Positions 611-19,544 of a DNA stretch of 64,000 nt are shown in pieces (positions within the stretch are counted from its first letter, which is position 1; each line of letters begins with the position of its first letter). The notes under the pieces were generated by a model that had not been told where the DNA came from, made no database searches, and saw only the letters and a program-made list of their open reading frames with translations. Source of the DNA: Alphaproteobacteria bacterium (lineage in GTDB: Bacteria > Pseudomonadota > Alphaproteobacteria > JAAXGF01); contig CAUVXB020000002.1 in the NCBI GenBank assembly GCA_963555825.3, positions 2,016,001 to 2,080,000 of the forward strand. Direction: 5' to 3'. The translations under genes were made by a program, and so were the position numbers.

Positions 611-948
611 GCTGCGTCTCCTCTAAAATCAAGCGGTCGGAATGGTTACAACGAACAGCACTGTCATTGCAATTGCCCGCTGCGGGCGACTTGCGACCCA
701 GACTGTGTAAAAACGCCGGCAAATACCACTAACAGGAGAGTGTCAAGTCAATTCTTCTATAGAGCCCTCATGATAAGATGTTGATTTGGTCGAACCTACA
801 AATTCGAGAATTCAGAGAAAATCGTGCCAATAGCGCTCGGGGGCGGTTTTTACACATGGCGTAACTCGGGGATCGGGCACTGCTCTCCTTAATGTAGCAA
901 CGACCGGCATGGGCCGGGCGAGCACACTGAAAGAGCAGGAGAGCAGCT

Positions 949-1978
949 ATGGAACTGTATGTTGGAATGGATGTATCGCTCAAGGAGACCTCGATCTGCG
1001 TGGTCGATGACAACGGCGAGATCGTGTCCGAGGGCGTGGTGATCTCGGAGCCGGCGGCAATCGCGGCGTATATCAGGACAACGGCGCCGCACGCAAAGCG
1101 CATCGGTCTGGAGACCGGTCCGACGACGACCTGGCTGTGGCATGAGCTCAGGGCGCTCGGCTTGCCGGTGATCTGCATCGATGCGCGTCATGCCAAGGCG
1201 GCGCTGTCGATGCAGATCAACAAGAGCGACCGGAACGATGCCGCCGGGATCGCGCGGGTCATGCAGTGCGGTTGGTACAAGGAGGTCCAAGTCGAGCGTG
1301 GCGTGCCACGAGATACGGGCCGTCCTGAACAGCCGGGCCCAGTTGGTCAAGATCAAGCGTGATCTCGAGAACCAGATCCGTGGCTTGCTCAAGAACCTCG
1401 GCCTCGTCATCGGCAAGGCGGGCGGCAATGTCTTCCGTCGCCGGGTCGAAGAGCTGCTTGGCGGGCAGGGTCTTTTGTCGGAGGCCGTTCGGCCCCTTCT
1501 GGAAGTCCGCGAGAAGGTCGGCCGAGAGATCGCCGCGCTCTATCGCAAGCTGCTGGGCCTGGCGCGGAACGACGAGGACAGCAGACGTTCCATGACGGTT
1601 CCAGGCATCGGGCCGATCACCGCCTTGGCCTTCCACTCGGCGATCGACGAGCCGAGCCGCTTCCGACGTTCCCGGAGTGTCGGCGCGTACATCGGGCTGA
1701 CGCCGCGCCGCCATGCTTCCGGCGAGGTCGATTGGACGGGGCGGATCTCCAAATGCGGCGATCGAATGCTCAGGACCTACCTCTTCGAGGCGGCCGGCGT
1801 GCTGCTCACCCGGGTGCCGCGATGGTGCGCGCTCAAGGCCTGGGGTCACAGGTTGTGGAAACGCATCGGCTTCAAGAAGGCCAAGATCGCCGTGGCACGG
1901 AAGCTGGCGGTCATCCTCCATCGCATGTGGCGTGATGGAACGGACTTCATCTGGTCAACCAAAGAGGCGGCCGCATAG
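949..1978 (+). pseudogene. IS110-family DEDD transposase/recombinase, frameshifted near 1291-1296
   Basis: N-terminal YVGMDVS..GLETGP..KSDRNDA in ORF 949-1362; C-terminal VPGIGPITA..GLTPRRHASGE..GRISKCGD..AVARKLA in ORF 1181-1978. Confidence 0.88.
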
Positions 1979-1984
1979 GGAAAC

Positions 1985-2190
1985 AACGTCCAAGCATTCC
2001 GCGAGAGCGGAACCGATGTCCCTGTCGGGACGGCGGCGTCGGCGAGATCGATCCAGGCTTTGCGATGCCTCACCGAGGCAAGCGCGCTTCACACATTGAT
2101 CCGCCAACGTCCTCCAACGCCATCATGCGGAGGGCCGAGCCCCTACCGCGGAGAGAACAGTGAACCCGGCAGGTACGTCACGGAGAGCTT
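1985..2190 (+). ncRNA. Putative bridge/seek RNA of the IS1111-type element
   Basis: Contains TCCAGGCT (2052-2059), TTCACACA (2088-2095), ACGCCAT (2117-2123) and AGAGAACA (2152-2159), matching both arms of the target and of the circle junction; RNA ends not determined. Confidence 0.75.
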
Positions 2191-2329
2191 GACAACCAAC
2201 CCCCGAGTTAGAGAACAGCCTGGACCCTCAGCAGACATTCATCGCTTTGAGTAAGGGGCACGATTCAGTGCCGATTGACATATAGTCTTCATGAATTTGA
2301 AGGTTATCTGGGAAATGTCGGCTTGATGT

Positions 2330-3643
2330 ATGACCTTAGGCAGCGGTGATTTTCCAACGGATCGACATGGCTGGGCGGAACTCCTGCCGGAACGGCAAGC
2401 GAGCCCGCCTTTAAGTGGAGCTCACAGGGTGTCGTGGGCGGTGATCGGGGCCGGGGTGACCGGTCTGGCCAGCGCCTGCCGTCTGGCCGAGCTCCACCCC
2501 GATCATGAGATCATGCTGCTGGATGCGCGTTTGGTTGGCCAGGGGGCCTCGGGGCGCAATTCCGGTTTTGCCGTCGCCGTCAGTCATTTCGATGGCGGCC
2601 TCGAGGCCGACGAGATGGCGAACTATCGTCGGGTCAATCGTATTAACCAAGCCGGTCTGGATCTGTTGCGAGTGCAAGTCGCCACGTCCGCGATTGATTG
2701 CCAATGGCAGGAAGATGGTTTTCACCATACCGCCGCTGATCGGCCGGCAATTCGCGAATGCCGCAATTTCCTGCGCTATCTTGAGGCCATGGAGATCGCC
2801 CATACGCCGCTTGATGCGGAGGCATTGAACGCGCGTCTGGGCACCACCCTTTACCAATCCGGCGTCCACGTCCACAAGGGGGCGCTCCTGCAACCGGCGG
2901 CCTTGGTGCGCGGGCTAGCGGACAATTTGCCCTCCAATGTCAGACTTCATGAACGAAGCCCGGTGCTCAGGATCGAGAATGGCACACCGCTGATTCTCCA
3001 CCTGCCAAATGGCGAGGTGCGGGCCGATAAACTTATTTTGGCGACCAACTACGAGGCGGCGAAACTTGGCTATCTGTGCCGCTATCTGATCGGCACCACC
3101 TTGTCGGGCAGTTTCACACGGACCTTAACTGATGATGAGCTTGCCAGCCTCGGCAGCCGGAAGGAATGGGGGGTTCTCTCGCTACACGGCGGCGGCGCGA
3201 CCGTGCGGCTGACGGCGGACCGGCGAATATGCCTGCGCAACGCGGCGGAGTATAATGGTGCCGCATTGCTGTCCGATAGGCAATTGGCCCATCGACAATC
3301 CATCCATCGGGCCGGGTTCGAGAAGCGCTTTCCGAAACTGGCCCATGTAGCGTTCGACTATGCCTGGTCCGGTGTCGAAGGGATCAGCCGCAACGGCGCC
3401 AATTTTTTCGGTCGCCAACGGGACAATATTTATCTCGCGGGCGGCTATAACGGTTCCGGCGTCAGCCGGGGGACGGCCTTCGGCACGGCGCTCGTAGACT
3501 ATGCCAGTGGCGGTCATTCACCGCTGATTGACGATTGTCTGGCCTCAGCACCTGGCGCCTGGATTCCGCCCAGGCCTTTCCTCGACATCGGCGCCCTTCT
3601 GACCGTCCGATCGCGTTTCCGGGGCGTTGGTTTGGATCGATAA
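2330..3643 (+). CDS. FAD-dependent oxidoreductase (DAO/PuuB-like)
   Basis: VIGAGVTG Rossmann motif, GASGRNSGF, GYNGSGV; paralog of 43197-44516. Confidence 0.88.
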   Translation: MTLGSGDFPTDRHGWAELLPERQASPPLSGAHRVSWAVIGAGVTGLASACRLAELHPDHEIMLLDARLVGQGASGRNSGFAVAVSHFDGGLEADEMANYRRVNRINQAGLDLLRVQVATSAIDCQWQEDGFHHTAADRPAIRECRNFLRYLEAMEIAHTPLDAEALNARLGTTLYQSGVHVHKGALLQPAALVRGLADNLPSNVRLHERSPVLRIENGTPLILHLPNGEVRADKLILATNYEAAKLGYLCRYLIGTTLSGSFTRTLTDDELASLGSRKEWGVLSLHGGGATVRLTADRRICLRNAAEYNGAALLSDRQLAHRQSIHRAGFEKRFPKLAHVAFDYAWSGVEGISRNGANFFGRQRDNIYLAGGYNGSGVSRGTAFGTALVDYASGGHSPLIDDCLASAPGAWIPPRPFLDIGALLTVRSRFRGVGLDR

Positions 3644-15434: not shown

Positions 15435-15481
15435 ACCGCTGCCCCTATTGTTAATGTCTACTGCGGGTCCAGACTGTGTAA

Positions 15482-16656
15482 TACCAGTGAGCCTATGAAA
15501 TCACCTTCATGATCCATGGATAGGCGCAGAGGGTTCGCATACGATCCGGTTCTGCGATGAGGTCGATCCATGCTTGGCAACAGGCGTCGATGATGGCCTC
15601 GGTGTCGTCGAGGACGCGGAGCGATAGGAAGCGTTCGCGTAGGTAGAGCCAAACCCGCTCGACGGGGTTGAGTTCGGGACTGTAAGGCGGCAACAGCGCC
15701 AAGGTGACGTTGTCGGGGACGGTGAGGGCGCGCTCGTCGTGCCAACCGGCGCCGTCGCACATCATGACGGCGTGCGCATCCTGGTCCAGGGTATCGGCGA
15801 AGTGTGCGAGAAACAGGTCCATGACCTTGGCGTTGACGCTCGGCATCACCAGGGTGACGTCGTCGCCGGTGTCCGGGCGCACGGCGGAGAAGATGTAGGC
15901 CCACTGGTAGCCGATTTGACGCGTCCCGGGGGCACGCTCGCCCCTGCGCCACCACCGGTGACACACCCGGCCCTTGTTGCCGACGCGCGCTTCATCCTGA
16001 AACCACAGCTGTAGGCGCTTGTCGGGATGCGCCGCGGCGGTCGCCTTCAGGATGTCGCGAAGCCCCCTTTTTTGAAGCGCTCCTGCGCTTCGGCGTCCCT
16101 TCGCGGGTGGCTCGGGCGCGCCTTCTGGCGGGAAAATCCCATCCGCCGTAGAACCCGGGTCATGCTCGAGGGGTGGTAGGTCTTGGCGAAGCGCTCCTCC
16201 AGCCAGCGGCACAGATCGGCCCGGGTCCAGGCGCAAACCCCGTCGCGCTCAGGCTCCGGCCCGGCGATGATGACCGCCGCCAGCGCCGCTTCCTCGTCTG
16301 CCGTCAGCCGCCGCGGCGAGTAGCCCTTTGGACGGTCGTGAAGCCCCTCCAATCCCTTTGCATTGTAACGAACAACCGCGTCGCGAAGCGTTTGGCGATC
16401 CATCCCCGCAAGCCGCGCGGCATCAGCCCGGGGCATCTCCTCCAAAGCATTCGCGATCCCATAGGCCCGCGCCGCCGCTCGACCGTACGATTCCACGCGA
16501 GCCCAGCGCCGAAGCTCCAAAGGCGTCAAATCATCCCGTATCTTGAGTGCTGATCCCATGACATCCCCCACATCTGGTGGGAGACCATAGAATCACAATC
16601 CGCCATCATCCGCCATCAATGAATATCCCGAGAGTCAATTCAGGCGCTCACTGGTA
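15482..16656 (-). mobile_element. IS630-family element, copy 1 (1175 bp)
   Basis: IR TACCAGTGAGC / GCTCACTGGTA; two overlapping ORFs. Confidence 0.9.
15493..16571 (-). CDS. IS630 transposase; OrfA (HTH) and OrfB (DDE) joined by probable -1 frameshift
   Basis: WFQDEARVG, CDGAGWH, LPPYSPELNPVE; slippery AAAAAAG at 16067-16073 (minus strand). Confidence 0.88.
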
Positions 16657-16659
16657 TTA

Positions 16660-17834
16660 TACCAGTGAGCCTATGAAATCACCTTCATGATCCATGGATA
16701 GGCGCAGAGGGTTCGCATACGATCCGGTTCTGCGATGAGGTCGATCCATGCTTGGCAACAGGCGTCGATGATGGCCTCGGTGTCGTCGAGGACGCGGAGC
16801 GATAGGAAGCGTTCGCGTAGGTAGAGCCAAACCCGCTCGACGGGGTTGAGTTCGGGACTGTAAGGCGGCAACAGCGCCAAGGTGACGTTGTCGGGGACGG
16901 TGAGGGCGCGCTCGTCGTGCCAACCGGCGCCGTCGCACATCATGACGGCGTGCGCATCCTGGTCCAGGGTATCGGCGAAGTGTGCGAGAAACAGGTCCAT
17001 GACCTTGGCGTTGACGCTCGGCATCACCAGGGTGACGTCGTCGCCGGTGTCCGGGCGCACGGCGGAGAAGATGTAGGCCCACTGGTAGCCGATTTGACGC
17101 GTCCCGGGGGCACGCTCGCCCCTGCGCCACCACCGGTGACACACCCGGCCCTTGTTGCCGACGCGCGCTTCATCCTGAAACCACAGCTGTAGGCGCTTGT
17201 CGGGATGCGCCGCGGCGGTCGCCTTCAGGATGTCGCGAAGCCCCCTTTTTTGAAGCGCTCCTGCGCTTCGGCGTCCCTTCGCGGGTGGCTCGGGCGCGCC
17301 TTCTGGCGGGAAAATCCCATCCGCCGTAGAACCCGGGTCATGCTCGAGGGGTGGTAGGTCTTGGCGAAGCGCTCCTCCAGCCAGCGGCACAGATCGGCCC
17401 GGGTCCAGGCGCAAACCCCGTCGCGCTCAGGCTCCGGCCCGGCGATGATGACCGCCGCCAGCGCCGCTTCCTCGTCTGCCGTCAGCCGCCGCGGCGAGTA
17501 GCCCTTTGGACGGTCGTGAAGCCCCTCCAATCCCTTTGCATTGTAACGAACAACCGCGTCGCGAAGCGTTTGGCGATCCATCCCCGCAAGCCGCGCGGCA
17601 TCAGCCCGGGGCATCTCCTCCAAAGCATTCGCGATCCCATAGGCCCGCGCCGCCGCTCGACCGTACGATTCCACGCGAGCCCAGCGCCGAAGCTCCAAAG
17701 GCGTCAAATCATCCCGTATCTTGAGTGCTGATCCCATGACATCCCCCACATCTGGTGGGAGACCATAGAATCACAATCCGCCATCATCCGCCATCAATGA
17801 ATATCCCGAGAGTCAATTCAGGCGCTCACTGGTA
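16660..17834 (-). mobile_element. IS630-family element, copy 2 (tandem, apparently identical)
   Basis: Same IRs and identical ORF translations, offset 1178 bp. Confidence 0.9.
16671..17749 (-). CDS. IS630 transposase (frameshift-joined), copy 2
   Basis: Translations identical to copy 1; slippery site at 17245-17251. Confidence 0.88.
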
Positions 17835-18006
17835 TAAGAACGTTTGCTGCGTGATCTGTACGGCGCGTCTTTGGCTTCGATGATCCGTCGCGGCGGGTAT
17901 TCCGGGATTAAGGATTTTCGCCACTCGTGCGGACCTGTCGGCCGGCTGGCGCCGGTGTGAGCTGCGATTTGGCCGGATATGGGCGCAATTTGCGGCGCAG
18001 AGAGGC

Positions 18007-19449
18007 CTATGCGGTCCTCATCGCCGCGATCAGCGGGTCGATGCCCGTGATGTTCATGACGCGCTTGAGATTGTAGGCCAGCACGTGCAGGGCCATCTCG
18101 GTCCTCACCCGTTTCAGCGTCTTCGTCTGGAAATGCGTCGCGCCCATCCAGGACTTGATGGTGCCGAAGGGATGCTCGGCCGTCTCGCGCCGCCGACGCA
18201 TCGCCTCCGGGTGCTCGTCGAGCCGCCTCTCGACGGCCTCGAGAACATGCTCGTGCTGCCAGCGGGTGATGCGGCGCTGCTTGGCCGTGGTGCAGCGATG
18301 CTTGATGGCGCATCCCTGACAGGCGTTGGTCCAGTAGCGCCGCATGCTCAGCCCCCTCTCCTGGCTGGTGAAGCGGTAGACCAAACGCTCGCCGGCCGGG
18401 CAGCGATAGACATCGTCGGCGGCCAGATAGACGAAGTCCTGTTTGCCGAAGCGGCCCTTGGCCTTGGCTCCAGAGGTCAGCGGCTTAGGCAATGTGACGG
18501 TGATGCCGGCCTCATCGCAGGCCAGAATCTCCTTGCCGTTGTAGTAGCCGCGATCGGCAACGACATCCAACTCGTCGGTCTCCAGAGCCGCCTTGGTCCG
18601 CTTCGCCATGGCTGAGAGCTGGGCGCGGTCGGTGCCCTGATTGGTCACCTCGTGGGCGACGATCAGGTGGTGCTTGGTGTCGACGGCGGCCTGAACGTTG
18701 TAGCCGACCACGCCGGAACCCCGGCCGCTCGTCGCCATCGAGCGGGCATCGGGATCGCTCAGAGAGATCTGCTGGTCCGGGCTCGCACGCCGCTCGACTT
18801 CAAGCGCCTTCAGGCGCCGCATCTCCTCCTTGAGGATCGCGATCTTGTCGGCCAGACGAGTCGTCTTGGTCGTGCGCGCCAGCGACGGCTCTTGCCGGTC
18901 GGCGCTGTCCAACTGGTCCAGATAGCGCGCAACGCTCTCCTCGATCTGCGCCACCCGCCGCGCCATCTTGGCCCGCGTGAAGTTCCTGTCCCGGCTGTTG
19001 ACCGCCTTGAACTTCGAGCCATCGATCGCCACGCTCGCCTCGGCGAACAGCCCGAGTTGCCGGCACAGCGCGACGAACCGGGCGCAGACCTTGCGGATCG
19101 CACGGCCGTTGTCCTTGCGGAAGTCGGCGATCGTCTTGTGATCCGGCGCCAGCCGGCCGACCAGCCACATCACTTCCACATTGCGCCCGGCCTCCCTCTC
19201 GAGCCGACGGCTCGACTGAACCCGGTTGAGATAGCCGTAGATGTAGAGCTTCAACAAATCGCAAGGATGATAGGCCGGCCTGCCGGTCGCCAGCGGCTCG
19301 ACCCGGTCGAACCCGAGGCCGCCAAGATCGAGCTCATCGACGAAGACGTCGATCGCCCGAACCGGGTTGTCGTCGCCGATCCAGTCTTCCAGGCGCTCCG
19401 GAAACAACGTGCCCTGGCTGCGATCGACACCCTCGACAAAACGCTTCAT
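18007..19449 (-). CDS. IS1182-family transposase
   Basis: GRPAYHP..LLKLYIYGY..SSRRLE, PDHKTIADFR, AIDGSK, SDPDAR, GYNVQ, ADRGY, EHPFGTIK. Confidence 0.92.
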   Translation of the reverse strand: MKRFVEGVDRSQGTLFPERLEDWIGDDNPVRAIDVFVDELDLGGLGFDRVEPLATGRPAYHPCDLLKLYIYGYLNRVQSSRRLEREAGRNVEVMWLVGRLAPDHKTIADFRKDNGRAIRKVCARFVALCRQLGLFAEASVAIDGSKFKAVNSRDRNFTRAKMARRVAQIEESVARYLDQLDSADRQEPSLARTTKTTRLADKIAILKEEMRRLKALEVERRASPDQQISLSDPDARSMATSGRGSGVVGYNVQAAVDTKHHLIVAHEVTNQGTDRAQLSAMAKRTKAALETDELDVVADRGYYNGKEILACDEAGITVTLPKPLTSGAKAKGRFGKQDFVYLAADDVYRCPAGERLVYRFTSQERGLSMRRYWTNACQGCAIKHRCTTAKQRRITRWQHEHVLEAVERRLDEHPEAMRRRRETAEHPFGTIKSWMGATHFQTKTLKRVRTEMALHVLAYNLKRVMNITGIDPLIAAMRTA

Positions 19450-19544
19450 CAGACCCTCCCGCCAAAGCACGAGAGAATCATAACACCATCGACGTTTTTA
19501 CACAGTCTGGGTCAGCTGCAGACCTACGGCGAAGTTGGGTTGGG

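Follow-up and report, generated by a model that had tools for sequence, protein, structure and literature searches.

What directs the insertion sequence at 857–2217 of the window, the whole 64,000-nucleotide stretch of DNA that was analysed, into the end of another mobile element? The original prediction was that this is an IS1111-type element with a readable bridge RNA, programmed against the terminal repeat of an IS1182-family transposon. Our analysis makes it very probable that the 3′ non-coding region of the element (about 1997–2177) encodes a two-loop bridge RNA (seekRNA), which would guide the recombinase to the tip of a repeat carried by MITE and IS1182-family elements. The element, its gene and its insertion site are laid out as follows:

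703–856, no strand assigned: body of a MITE of about 154 bp, with terminal inverted repeats CTGTGTAAAAACGCC (703–717) and GGCGGTTTTTACACA (842–856)
849–856, + strand: predicted left target half together with the core, TTTACA-CA, 7/8 to TTCACACA
857–2217, + strand: IS1111-group insertion sequence, with boundaries made ambiguous by the shared CA/ACA
862–871, + strand: left subterminal inverted repeat TAACTCGGGG, the reverse complement of 2201–2210
949–1978, + strand: broken transposase/recombinase gene, with the N-terminal DEDD part from 949 and the C-terminal part in the frame that stops with TAG 1976–1978
2201–2210, + strand: right subterminal inverted repeat CCCCGAGTTA
2218–2224, + strand: predicted right half of the target, GCCTGGA, consisting of the last base of the MITE repeat and conserved adjoining sequence

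The 1361-bp element is assigned to the IS1111 group of the IS110 family, as had been claimed, and the family profiles, the subterminal repeats and the 3′ non-coding region all agree on this assignment. It is flanked by TTTACACA on the left and GCCTGGA on the right. The left junction reads ...GGCGGTTTTTACACA|TGGCGTAACTCGGGG, with CA at 855–856 and the element starting at 857, and the right junction reads ...GAGTTAGAGAACA|GCCTGGACCC, with CA at 2216–2217. A CA core had been proposed, and CA is indeed present at both junctions; however, nearly every homolog has ACA both in its left flank and at its right end, and ACA fits the sequence equally well, so that the core is ambiguous between CA and ACA. 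The homolog set comprised 79 loci with 67–90% protein identity, and both element ends are conserved in 72 of the 80 loci examined, the window included; the left subterminal repeat is kept in homologs as TAA(C/T)TC(G/C)GGG. Terminal extensions of 5 and 7 bases lie outside the 10-bp subterminal repeats, and subterminal inverted repeats of the IS1111 group are described as ranging from 7 to 17 bp (PMC11208160). With 92 non-coding bases ahead of the start codon and 239 beyond the stop codon, the RNA side would be downstream of the gene, as in the IS1111 group.

The two pieces of the gene match Pfam families PF01548 (N-terminal DEDD/RuvC-like domain, E 6.7e-10) and PF02371 (C-terminal Transposase_20 domain, E 9.9e-23), and on the NCBIfam model NF033542 ('IS110 family RNA-guided transposase', cut-off 140) an intact 343-aa copy reaches 252 bits. 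The N-terminal part contains GMDVS, GLETGP and KSDRNDA with D-x-x-D spacing, and the phmmer alignment to the solved enzyme, IS621 (8wt6, E 3e-9), is confined to the C-terminal domain, covering residues 193–336 only (144 residues). Within this domain, the A-S-G of ...GLTPRRHASG... in the intact copy (...IGLTPRRHASGE...) aligns on the E-S-G of IS621 chain 8wt6_A, which holds the catalytic serine (S241-G242; PMC11208158), and the motif GL-P----SG is given as a trait of IS1111-group transposases (PMC11187229). The frameshift that had been suspected near 1291–1296 corresponds, in an alignment of the six full-length copies in this genome, to a loss of 2 bases after window position 1293, common to the window copy and C2:3487055 and not found in the other four. 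Three of those four contain an uninterrupted 343-aa frame, and the fourth has a 34-bp insertion. Because of the two lost bases, the window copy would be mobile only with enzyme supplied in trans by the three intact copies.

The six full-length copies are 99.7–100% identical over aligned stretches, the one with the 34-bp insertion included. All of them, as well as one truncated relic, are inserted directly after (T/C)T(T/C)ACACA, as expected if other copies sat at the same word. The right flanks of the six are GCCTGGA in four cases, GCCTAGT in one and GTCTGGA in one, and the copy at C2:1372882 sits at TTCACACA, an 8/8 match to the left-half guide described below. No target duplication was found beyond the core, only CA/ACA being common to flank and right end, as in the site-specific insertion of the IS1111 group.

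Four ordered segments had been reported downstream of the gene, and all four words are present in the positions and order claimed. They are listed here together with the helices and other parts of the predicted RNA region:

1997–2012, + strand: 5′ stem-loop TTCCGC-GAGA-GCGGAA, opening the non-coding region
2017–2029, + strand: 5′ strand of P0, the long closing helix, pairing with 2165–2177
2035–2049, + strand: 5′ strand of P1, which closes the target-binding loop and pairs with 2098–2111
2052–2059, + strand: target guide T, TCCAGGCT, complementary to the top strand over core-A and right flank (AGCCTGGA), 8/8
2061–2086, + strand: inner hairpin of the target loop, with P2 (TGCG/CGCG) and P3 (TGCCTC/GAGGCA)
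2088–2095, + strand: target guide B, TTCACACA, in the same sense as left flank plus core, 7/8 at the window site
2117–2123, + strand: donor guide D1, ACGCCAT, complementary to core-A plus the first 6 left-end bases (ATGGCGT), 7/7
2126–2150, + strand: P4, hairpin in the donor-binding loop, TGCGGAGGG / CCCTACCGCG
2152–2159, + strand: donor guide D2, AGAGAACA, the same as the final 8 right-end bases including the core, 8/8
2165–2177, + strand: 3′ strand of P0
2189–2194, + strand: TTGACA, a possible −35 box, then an 18-nt spacer, GAACA, and T from the left end

Chance occurrence of the four words was assessed with 20,000 mononucleotide shuffles of 1979–2200, which never held more than two of the four (none in 18,941 shuffles, one in 1,041 and two in 18). 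Guide B reads in the sense of the left flank and core and is therefore complementary to the bottom strand. When compared over 8 positions, D1 matches at 7/8 in 61 of 72 loci, and in 50 of these the mismatch falls at left-end base 4, where the DNA has G and C is expected; this mismatch, fixed in 50 of the 72 loci, means that donor pairing would be imperfect across the clade. D2 matches at 8/8 in 50 of 72 loci and at 7/8 in 20 more. Since the donor words barely vary, they show agreement without covariation.

The target words could be read against their own insertion sites in 67 usable loci, which between them use 22 different right-half and 14 different left-half guides. The T guide matches the right flank at 6.49 of 9 positions, compared with 4.72 after shuffling, and the B guide matches the left flank at 7.78 of 9, compared with 6.19; in neither case did any of 10,000 shuffles reach the observed value, although these counts overstate independence because the homologs are related to one another. 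The covariation holds when each distinct guide is given one target (22 and 14 guides). A match of at least 7/9 was found for the T guide in 46 of the 67 loci and of at least 8/9 for the B guide in 60, while the T guide fell to 3/9 or lower in six loci, four of which have an altered right end and two of which (L019 and L084) have no such alteration. Both target words thus covary with the flanks, and insertion at sites unrelated to the guide words was not the pattern seen in these loci. The comparison also shows that mismatches are often tolerated at the two positions adjoining the core on its right, and that the ninth position is unread on either side.

In the consensus fold of 34–35 homologs, both target words are fully unpaired within an internal loop closed by conserved helices, and the donor words lie largely in an internal loop, unpaired except for 1–3 invariant marginal pairs. 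In the consensus the segments are thus looped rather than paired, the target words wholly and the donor words largely. The stem predicted earlier (GATCGA at 2046–2051 with TTGATC at 2096–2101) and the hairpin inside it (TGCCTC at 2066–2071 with GAGGCA at 2075–2080) are both present, falling within the consensus P1 and P3, respectively. In this fold, 98.3% of 1117 cells are paired, compared with 35–49% when the partners are slid, and seven pairs are changed on both sides where 2.1 would be expected, a number reached by none of 500 shuffles. P0 comprises 11 pairs (RNAalifold, 34 sequences), of which pair 2017:2177 is C-G in 15 sequences, U-A in eight and U-G in four. P1 has 12 pairs with 99.3% of cells paired, P4 has nine pairs with 99.0% of cells paired, and each contains two pairs changed on both sides. 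The P3 hairpin was found in 35 of 35 sequences and the P2 helix in 34 of 35, 32 of these sequences being distinct. A hairpin with other stem letters occupies the position of the 5′ stem-loop in homologs, e.g., CCTGCC/GGCAGG and CCCGCC/GGCGGG, as read by eye from the alignment. Single-sequence folding gave z-scores of −2.57 for 1979–2217 and −1.16 for 2030–2175, and the minimum-energy fold partly pairs the two target words with each other; we relied on the comparative fold because single-sequence folds are weak evidence.

A scan of 600–2500 with Rfam 15, with E up to 1, returned no match to a bridge-RNA family. A minus-strand match to an Rfam miRNA model was set aside as chance, scoring 23.5 bits where the gathering score is 44. 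No sigma-70-like site was found in a promoter scan of 650–2350 in the integrated state. The sequence CTTGAC is nearly invariant among homologs, and TTGACA may be the −35 box of a promoter that would be completed only in the excised circle.

The insertion site lies at the right end of the MITE, whose last base (G) is now at 2218, separated from the rest by the inserted element. Examples of MITE copies that share these ends and are unoccupied, with pattern starts spaced 151 bp apart, are C2:579217/579368, C2:1506306/1506457 and C2:3549011/3549162, and the exact empty 15-mer TTTACACAGCCTGGA has three unoccupied occurrences elsewhere in the genome. The flank beyond the right half reads CTGGACCC-TCA-GCAGAC, a pattern common to most IS1182 and MITE ends. 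The MITE ends resemble those of an IS1182-family insertion sequence of about 1.67 kb, which ends in ...CGACGTTTTTACACAG and ...AACGTTCTTACACAG; within the window, the DDE transposase frame between such ends, at positions 18007–19470 on the minus strand, scores 453 bits on NF033551 (IS1182 family, cut-off 270) and matches Pfam DUF772, DDE_Tnp_1 and DDE_Tnp_1_6. The claim that the target is the IS1182 terminal repeat therefore needs qualification: its left half is the tip of the repeat common to the IS1182-family insertion sequence and the MITE, but the window copy sits in a MITE, and none of the 51 IS1182 ends in this genome is occupied. All seven occupied sites here are MITE ends. Five composite ends are likewise unoccupied, and no IS1182 or composite end in this genome matches the right-half guide at 8/8. 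The base just past ...CACAG is C in MITE ends and T or G in IS1182 ends; one base past the repeat tip separates occupied from unoccupied sites in this genome. The connection to IS1182 is plainer in other genomes, where an IS1182-family transposase frame was found within the 1.5-kb flank at 27 of the 79 homolog loci, and relatives are located at the ends of several IS1182-family subfamilies, with the B guide tracking the end (CACACA, TCAACA or GCAACA).

A further level of nesting, in which the transposon end would itself interrupt a palindrome of a repeated family (family P), was borne out in one part only. The flanks are indeed members of a conserved family, CTGGRYCM-N3-GCRGAC, that lies beside REP-like units, but the empty palindrome was not found: a strict pattern search gave no matches in this genome, and a loose one gave 79, mostly of one unrelated high-copy repeat with the rest scattered, none being an empty site. 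No orthologous empty site was found among 30 relatives, of which G001 has the neighbouring oxidoreductase gene (83% identity) with an unrelated upstream region. Among six publications found on IS1182 together with IS1111, none concerned this targeting by title or abstract.

Taken as a working mechanism, the bridge RNA would consist of the 5′ stem-loop and a long closing helix around two arms, with a large internal loop in each. In the target loop, TCCAGGCT would pair with the top strand (core-A and right flank) and TTCACACA with the bottom strand (left flank and CA core). [quoted passage not shown] The DEDD/serine recombinase, probably bound to the RNA once this is made, would then join the putative excised circle to TT(T/C)ACA-CA-GCCTGGA, that is, to the tip of the repeat common to the IS1182-family insertion sequence and the MITE plus conserved adjoining bases, the exact crossover point being likewise predicted.

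The transposase could instead read the transposon end by protein–DNA contacts, with the four words arising as by-products (captured target or end sequence) that play no guiding role. We regard this as extremely improbable, because the target words change with the flanks through 22 and 14 guide variants and lie in the loops of a conserved fold that shows compensatory changes, and because four IS1111-group members are described as experimentally shown to need such an RNA (PMC11187229); what speaks for it is that the donor words, being almost invariant, could be plain repeats of the ends, and that the small RNA downstream of ISPpu9 is reported as not required for transposition (PMC12288879). The right half of the target, which falls in the flank family beside REP-like GTCCGCTT..GCGGAC units, could also suggest that the element targets a host family of REP-like palindromes and that the MITE/IS1182 link is incidental, and REP targeting is known in this group from ISPpu9 (PMC12288879). 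Yet in every copy the MITE/IS1182 terminal repeat encloses the left half and core, the REP-like units occur without an insertion sequence in 16 of 27 cases and then lack the target word, and the relatives elsewhere change their B guide according to the IS1182 subfamily whose end they occupy; such a host-repeat target is accordingly a very unlikely one.

RNA-guided targeting of the repeat tip could also belong to the past, the window copy and its RNA being inactive now and the copy family recording former activity only. The gene is frameshifted in two copies and interrupted by the 34-bp insertion in a third, and three perfect target sites are still empty. The near-identity of the copies, half of which retain intact 343-aa frames, points rather to recent movement. 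Moreover, the window copy shares its RNA region without any change with four of the five other full copies (C1:344233 differs at window position 2019), and this region could therefore serve in trans. A dead relic is thus an unlikely account, albeit one that deserves real weight.

Four of the six full copies carry 3′ tails, and solo and tandem 3′ modules of the element occur in this genome. At C1:935108, a full copy runs straight into another 3′ end of the element, which starts exactly after TTCACACA. The element has 83 CA sites, of which this TTCACACA site is the single best guide match, with 6/6 to the left-half guide and core and 0/7 to the right-half guide. On a speculative and rather improbable reading, the DNA encoding guide B would act as a half-target, and recombination at a site that fits a single guide plus the core, with homologous collapse afterwards, would give tandem bridge-RNA modules, which might explain the tails on four of the six copies; on the same reading, the right-half guide, by reading the base just past ...CACAG, would let the element land in non-autonomous MITEs and spare the autonomous IS1182 copies of this genome. 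Slippage at microhomology (GAAC, AC, ACA) was also considered and may account for three of the four tails.

Insertion into another transposon's terminal repeat is reported for an insertion sequence of this group in the title of Partridge and Hall (2003), and IS4321 and IS5075 ride on the ends of Tn21. In contrast to these two, the hosts here are an IS1182-family insertion sequence and a MITE instead of a Tn3-family element, and the site spans the repeat tip and adjoining bases. The element is like ISEc11, ISPa11, ISKpn4 and ISPst6 as described by Siddiquee et al. (2024, PMC11187229) in its DEDD transposase (330–350 aa in that group), the GL-P----SG motif, the subterminal repeats and the long 3′ non-coding region, and like ISEc11, ISPa11 and ISKpn4 of the same report in having the top-strand word 5′ of the bottom-strand word, with overlap in the target. 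It differs from them in its target sequence and guide words, and its RNA is a predicted one. With IS621 (Durrant et al. 2024, PMC11208160; Hiraizumi et al. [quoted passage not shown] On the other hand, the IS621 RNA is described as lying in the left end, upstream of the gene, with core CT, whereas here it would lie in the right end, with core CA (or ACA). ISPpu9 of Pseudomonas putida, according to PMC12288879, sits in a repeated palindromic sequence and has a 3′ RNA module that is also found by itself or joined to a 3′ part of the transposase gene, resembling the solo and tandem modules found here; the ISPpu9 modules are bounded by repeated end boxes and their RNA is dispensable for transposition in that account, whereas the tails here abut the right end directly.

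That IS110/IS1111 elements are guided by a bridge RNA or seekRNA was described in 2024, and the finding is therefore not new in principle. Its value lies in a clean natural data set, in which 72 loci with one RNA scaffold offer 22 right-half and 14 left-half guides readable against their own sites. Should the self-targeting of guide-encoding DNA at which the 3′ tails hint be confirmed, it would have consequences for the off-target rules of bridge recombinases as tools. For the family itself, the clade appears to ride on the ends of IS1182-family elements and MITEs, much as IS4321 and IS5075 do on those of Tn21.

The ends of the element could be read directly from the window, with the left junction, ...GGCGGTTTTTACACA/TGGCGTAACTCGGGG..., at 842-871 and the right junction, ...CCCCGAGTTAGAGAACA/GCCTGGACCC..., at 2201-2227. 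The 1361 bases between them contain two overlapping reading frames, the first matching the IS110-transposase DEDD domain (PF01548, E 6.7e-10) and the second the C-terminal Transposase_20 domain (PF02371, E 9.9e-23). An alignment of the six full-length copies in the genome (99.7-100% identity across aligned stretches) bore out the predicted frameshift in the recombinase: two bases are missing after position 1293 in the window copy and in C2:3487055 (C1 and C2 are contigs of this genome), and half of the six have an uninterrupted 343-aa frame. One of the six, otherwise near-identical, carries a 34-bp insertion near the transposase gene start (C1:935246-935280, window-equivalent 994). On NCBIfam NF033542 ("IS110 family RNA-guided transposase"; cut-off 140) the intact protein reaches 252 bits. 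Over its C-terminal 144 residues it can be aligned with the IS621 recombinase (entry 8wt6, E 3e-9), and there the A-S-G of its ...GLTPRRHASG... stretch corresponds to the E-S-G of IS621, the site of the catalytic serine. There are 92 non-coding bases ahead of the gene and 239 behind it; the subterminal repeat, the long 3′ non-coding region and the 343-aa length match the IS1111-group traits described in PMC11187229 and PMC11208160. The element thus belongs to an already known kind, the IS1111-group RNA-guided insertion sequences. The following features were located:

703-856 plus G2218: MITE of ~154 bp carrying the targeted repeat
862-871 and 2201-2210: subterminal inverted repeat, 10 bp
1997-2012: 5′ stem-loop, its shape kept with differing letters in the alignment (judged by eye, not by pair count)
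2017-2029 with 2165-2177: closing helix P0, 11 pairs, one switching C-G/U-A
2035-2049 with 2098-2111: helix P1
2052-2059: right-half guide, TCCAGGCT
2061-2086: inner hairpin P2/P3
2088-2095: left-half guide, TTCACACA
2117-2123: donor guide D1, ACGCCAT
2126-2150: hairpin P4
2152-2159: donor guide D2, AGAGAACA

The original prediction had placed four guide words behind the gene, and all four were recovered at its coordinates and in its order; when 1979-2200 was shuffled 20,000 times by mononucleotide, no shuffle contained three or all four of the expected words. The right-half guide is complementary to the top strand formed by the core A plus GCCTGGA, and the left-half guide has the top-strand sense, TT[C/T]ACA plus CA. 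The donor pair follows the same design, built on the predicted circle junction, and D1 shows a fixed mismatch to the fourth base of the left end in 50 of the 72 loci. Both the word order and the one-base overlap are as reported for ISEc11, ISPa11 and ISKpn4 in PMC11187229.

A consensus structure was obtained with RNAalifold from 35 sequences and then from 34 longer ones. Within it, the two target words form the strands of an internal loop and are wholly unpaired, which leaves them looped, as predicted. The donor words lie on the strands of a second loop, around P4, and are touched by only 1-3 marginal, invariant pairs. In the 35-sequence alignment, 98.3% of the 1117 cells are paired, compared with 35-49% after sliding the partners, and seven pairs changed on both sides versus 2.1 in shuffles (0 of 500 reached seven). 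The P3 hairpin is present in 35/35 sequences (32 distinct) and P2 also in 34/35. Single-sequence folds were not relied on, because they were weaker and partly paired the target words with each other. No matching Rfam family was found in a scan of 600-2500, and no sigma-70-like promoter of the integrated state in a scan of 650-2350. A TTGACA at 2189-2194, conserved in homologs, stands 18 bases ahead of GAACA/T in the predicted circle, which suggests a candidate junction promoter.

Guide and flank were compared among homologs by scanning the intact protein against one genome per species, which gave 79 loci (67-90% identity). Both element ends were located in 72 of 80 loci, window included, and 67 were usable after five further loci with short flanks, N or a guide-column length change were left out. 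The right-half guide matched its own flank at ≥7/9 positions in 46 loci, 6/9 in 14, 5/9 in one and ≤3/9 in six; in four of these six the last element base is altered, which makes a rearranged right junction probable, and the remaining two (L019 and L084) have no altered element end. The left-half guide matched at ≥8/9 in 60/67. Over distinct guide-target pairs, the mean match was 6.49 of nine positions against 4.72 shuffled on the right, and 7.78 against 6.19 on the left, each value being reached by 0 of 10,000 shuffles, counts that overstate significance because relatives are not independent; the outcome did not change when each distinct guide (22 right-half, 14 left-half) was given a single target. 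Right-side switches are many and varied in kind (CCAGGCT, CCGAGGCT, CCCTGGCT, GTCTTGGCT, CAGATTTT), and left-side switches comprise CACACA, TCAACA, GCAACA and TACACA. The ninth position seldom matches on either side, and therefore each guide reads 8 bases; the most mismatch-tolerant positions are core-adjacent on the right side. Both target words thus change with their flanks, as covariation of guide and target had been expected to show. The original observation is confirmed, and its interpretation as a bridge RNA (seekRNA) is supported by these sequence comparisons.

Four of the six full copies run straight into an incomplete second copy of the element's 3′ part (C1:936502-936626, C1:345593-346225, C2:1372475-1372885 and C1:1666189-1666211), and one of the four has its tail twice. 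In one case the tail begins immediately behind the left-half guide TTCACACA, the best guide match among the element's 83 CA sites (left-half 6/6, right-half 0/7); this start would be accounted for if the element had inserted into its own guide-coding DNA and homologous collapse had followed. The other three junctions have only 2-4 bases of microhomology, and slippage may have given these tails. Separate 3′ modules have a loose parallel in ISPpu9 (PMC12288879). The genome also has stand-alone, diverged (81-91%) bridge-RNA modules, which belong to a second IS1111-type lineage, at C2:2842354-2842537, C2:840560-840645 and C1:346345-346465; two of the three have a ~45-base hairpin insert between P0 and P1, and the first shows CCGAGG/TCTTCAA-type guide words and the flank GCCTCGG.

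Together the MITE and the IS take up the space between a minus-strand, cysteine-rich frame of 130 aa (218-610) and a 437-aa frame (2330-3643) that, by reading the sequence, looks like a putative FAD-dependent oxidoreductase; in a relative genome, G001, the oxidoreductase gene is present (83% identical DNA) but is preceded by other sequence. Genome-wide, the flanks past ...CACAG at IS1182/MITE ends share CTGGRYCM-N3-GCRGAC (2218-2240 in the window), followed on one side, after about 20 bases, by REP-like GTCCGCTT-N3-AGCGG-N3-GCGGAC units; of 27 such units, 16 occur with no IS. Of the third nesting level originally proposed, a family-P palindrome, this conserved flank family stands, but no empty palindrome was found in pattern searches of the genome; nor was an orthologous empty site among the relatives compared. 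GCCTGGA may be either the outer extremity of the repeat or a conserved site of insertion. A high-copy repeat containing GATCCAGGCCCTGGACC occurs at about 70 places, some in arrays spaced exactly 1181 bp (e.g., C1:235851, 237032, 238213 and 239394).

The left half of the target falls within the final bases of a terminal inverted repeat. At its ends, ...CG(G)TTTTTACACAG, the MITE is similar to a ~1.67-kb IS of about 25-30 copies encoding an IS1182-family transposase (453 bits on NF033551 for the window's own copy). With tandem-tailed copies assigned to sites by hand, all 7 sites at which the element sits (six full-length copies, one copy truncated and diverged) are MITE ends, and it occupied 0/51 IS1182 ends and 0/5 composite ends in this genome. 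The predicted IS1182 terminal-repeat target therefore holds for its left half, whereas the copies here lie only in MITE ends: the target comprises the repeat tip that the MITE shares with the IS1182-family IS, together with the bases next to it. Occupancy tracks one base, mostly C after MITE ends (CAG-C-CTGG) and T or G after IS1182 ends, where the best match to the right-half guide is 7/8. Seven MITE sites match this guide 8/8 (four occupied, three empty), and among the other occupied sites one reads GTCTGGA (7/8) and one GCCTAGT (6/8). In one MITE (C1:1664437-1664826) each end carries an IS1111-type copy, the one full, the other truncated, diverged (85-93%) and inverted. The stretch 15468-19511 of the window combines an IS1182-family copy, its transposase on the minus strand at 18007-19470, with two IS630-like units in tandem that have DDE_3 and HTH frames (15493-16571 and 16671-17749); the ...TACACAG word at both outer ends is unoccupied. 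In other genomes, 27 of the 79 relatives have an IS1182-family transposase frame within the 1.5-kb flank, 13 of these at 67-78% identity to that of this genome, one at 48% and 13 at only 23-31%, and the left-half guide differs among these identity groups. The clade overall therefore rides on IS1182-family ends.
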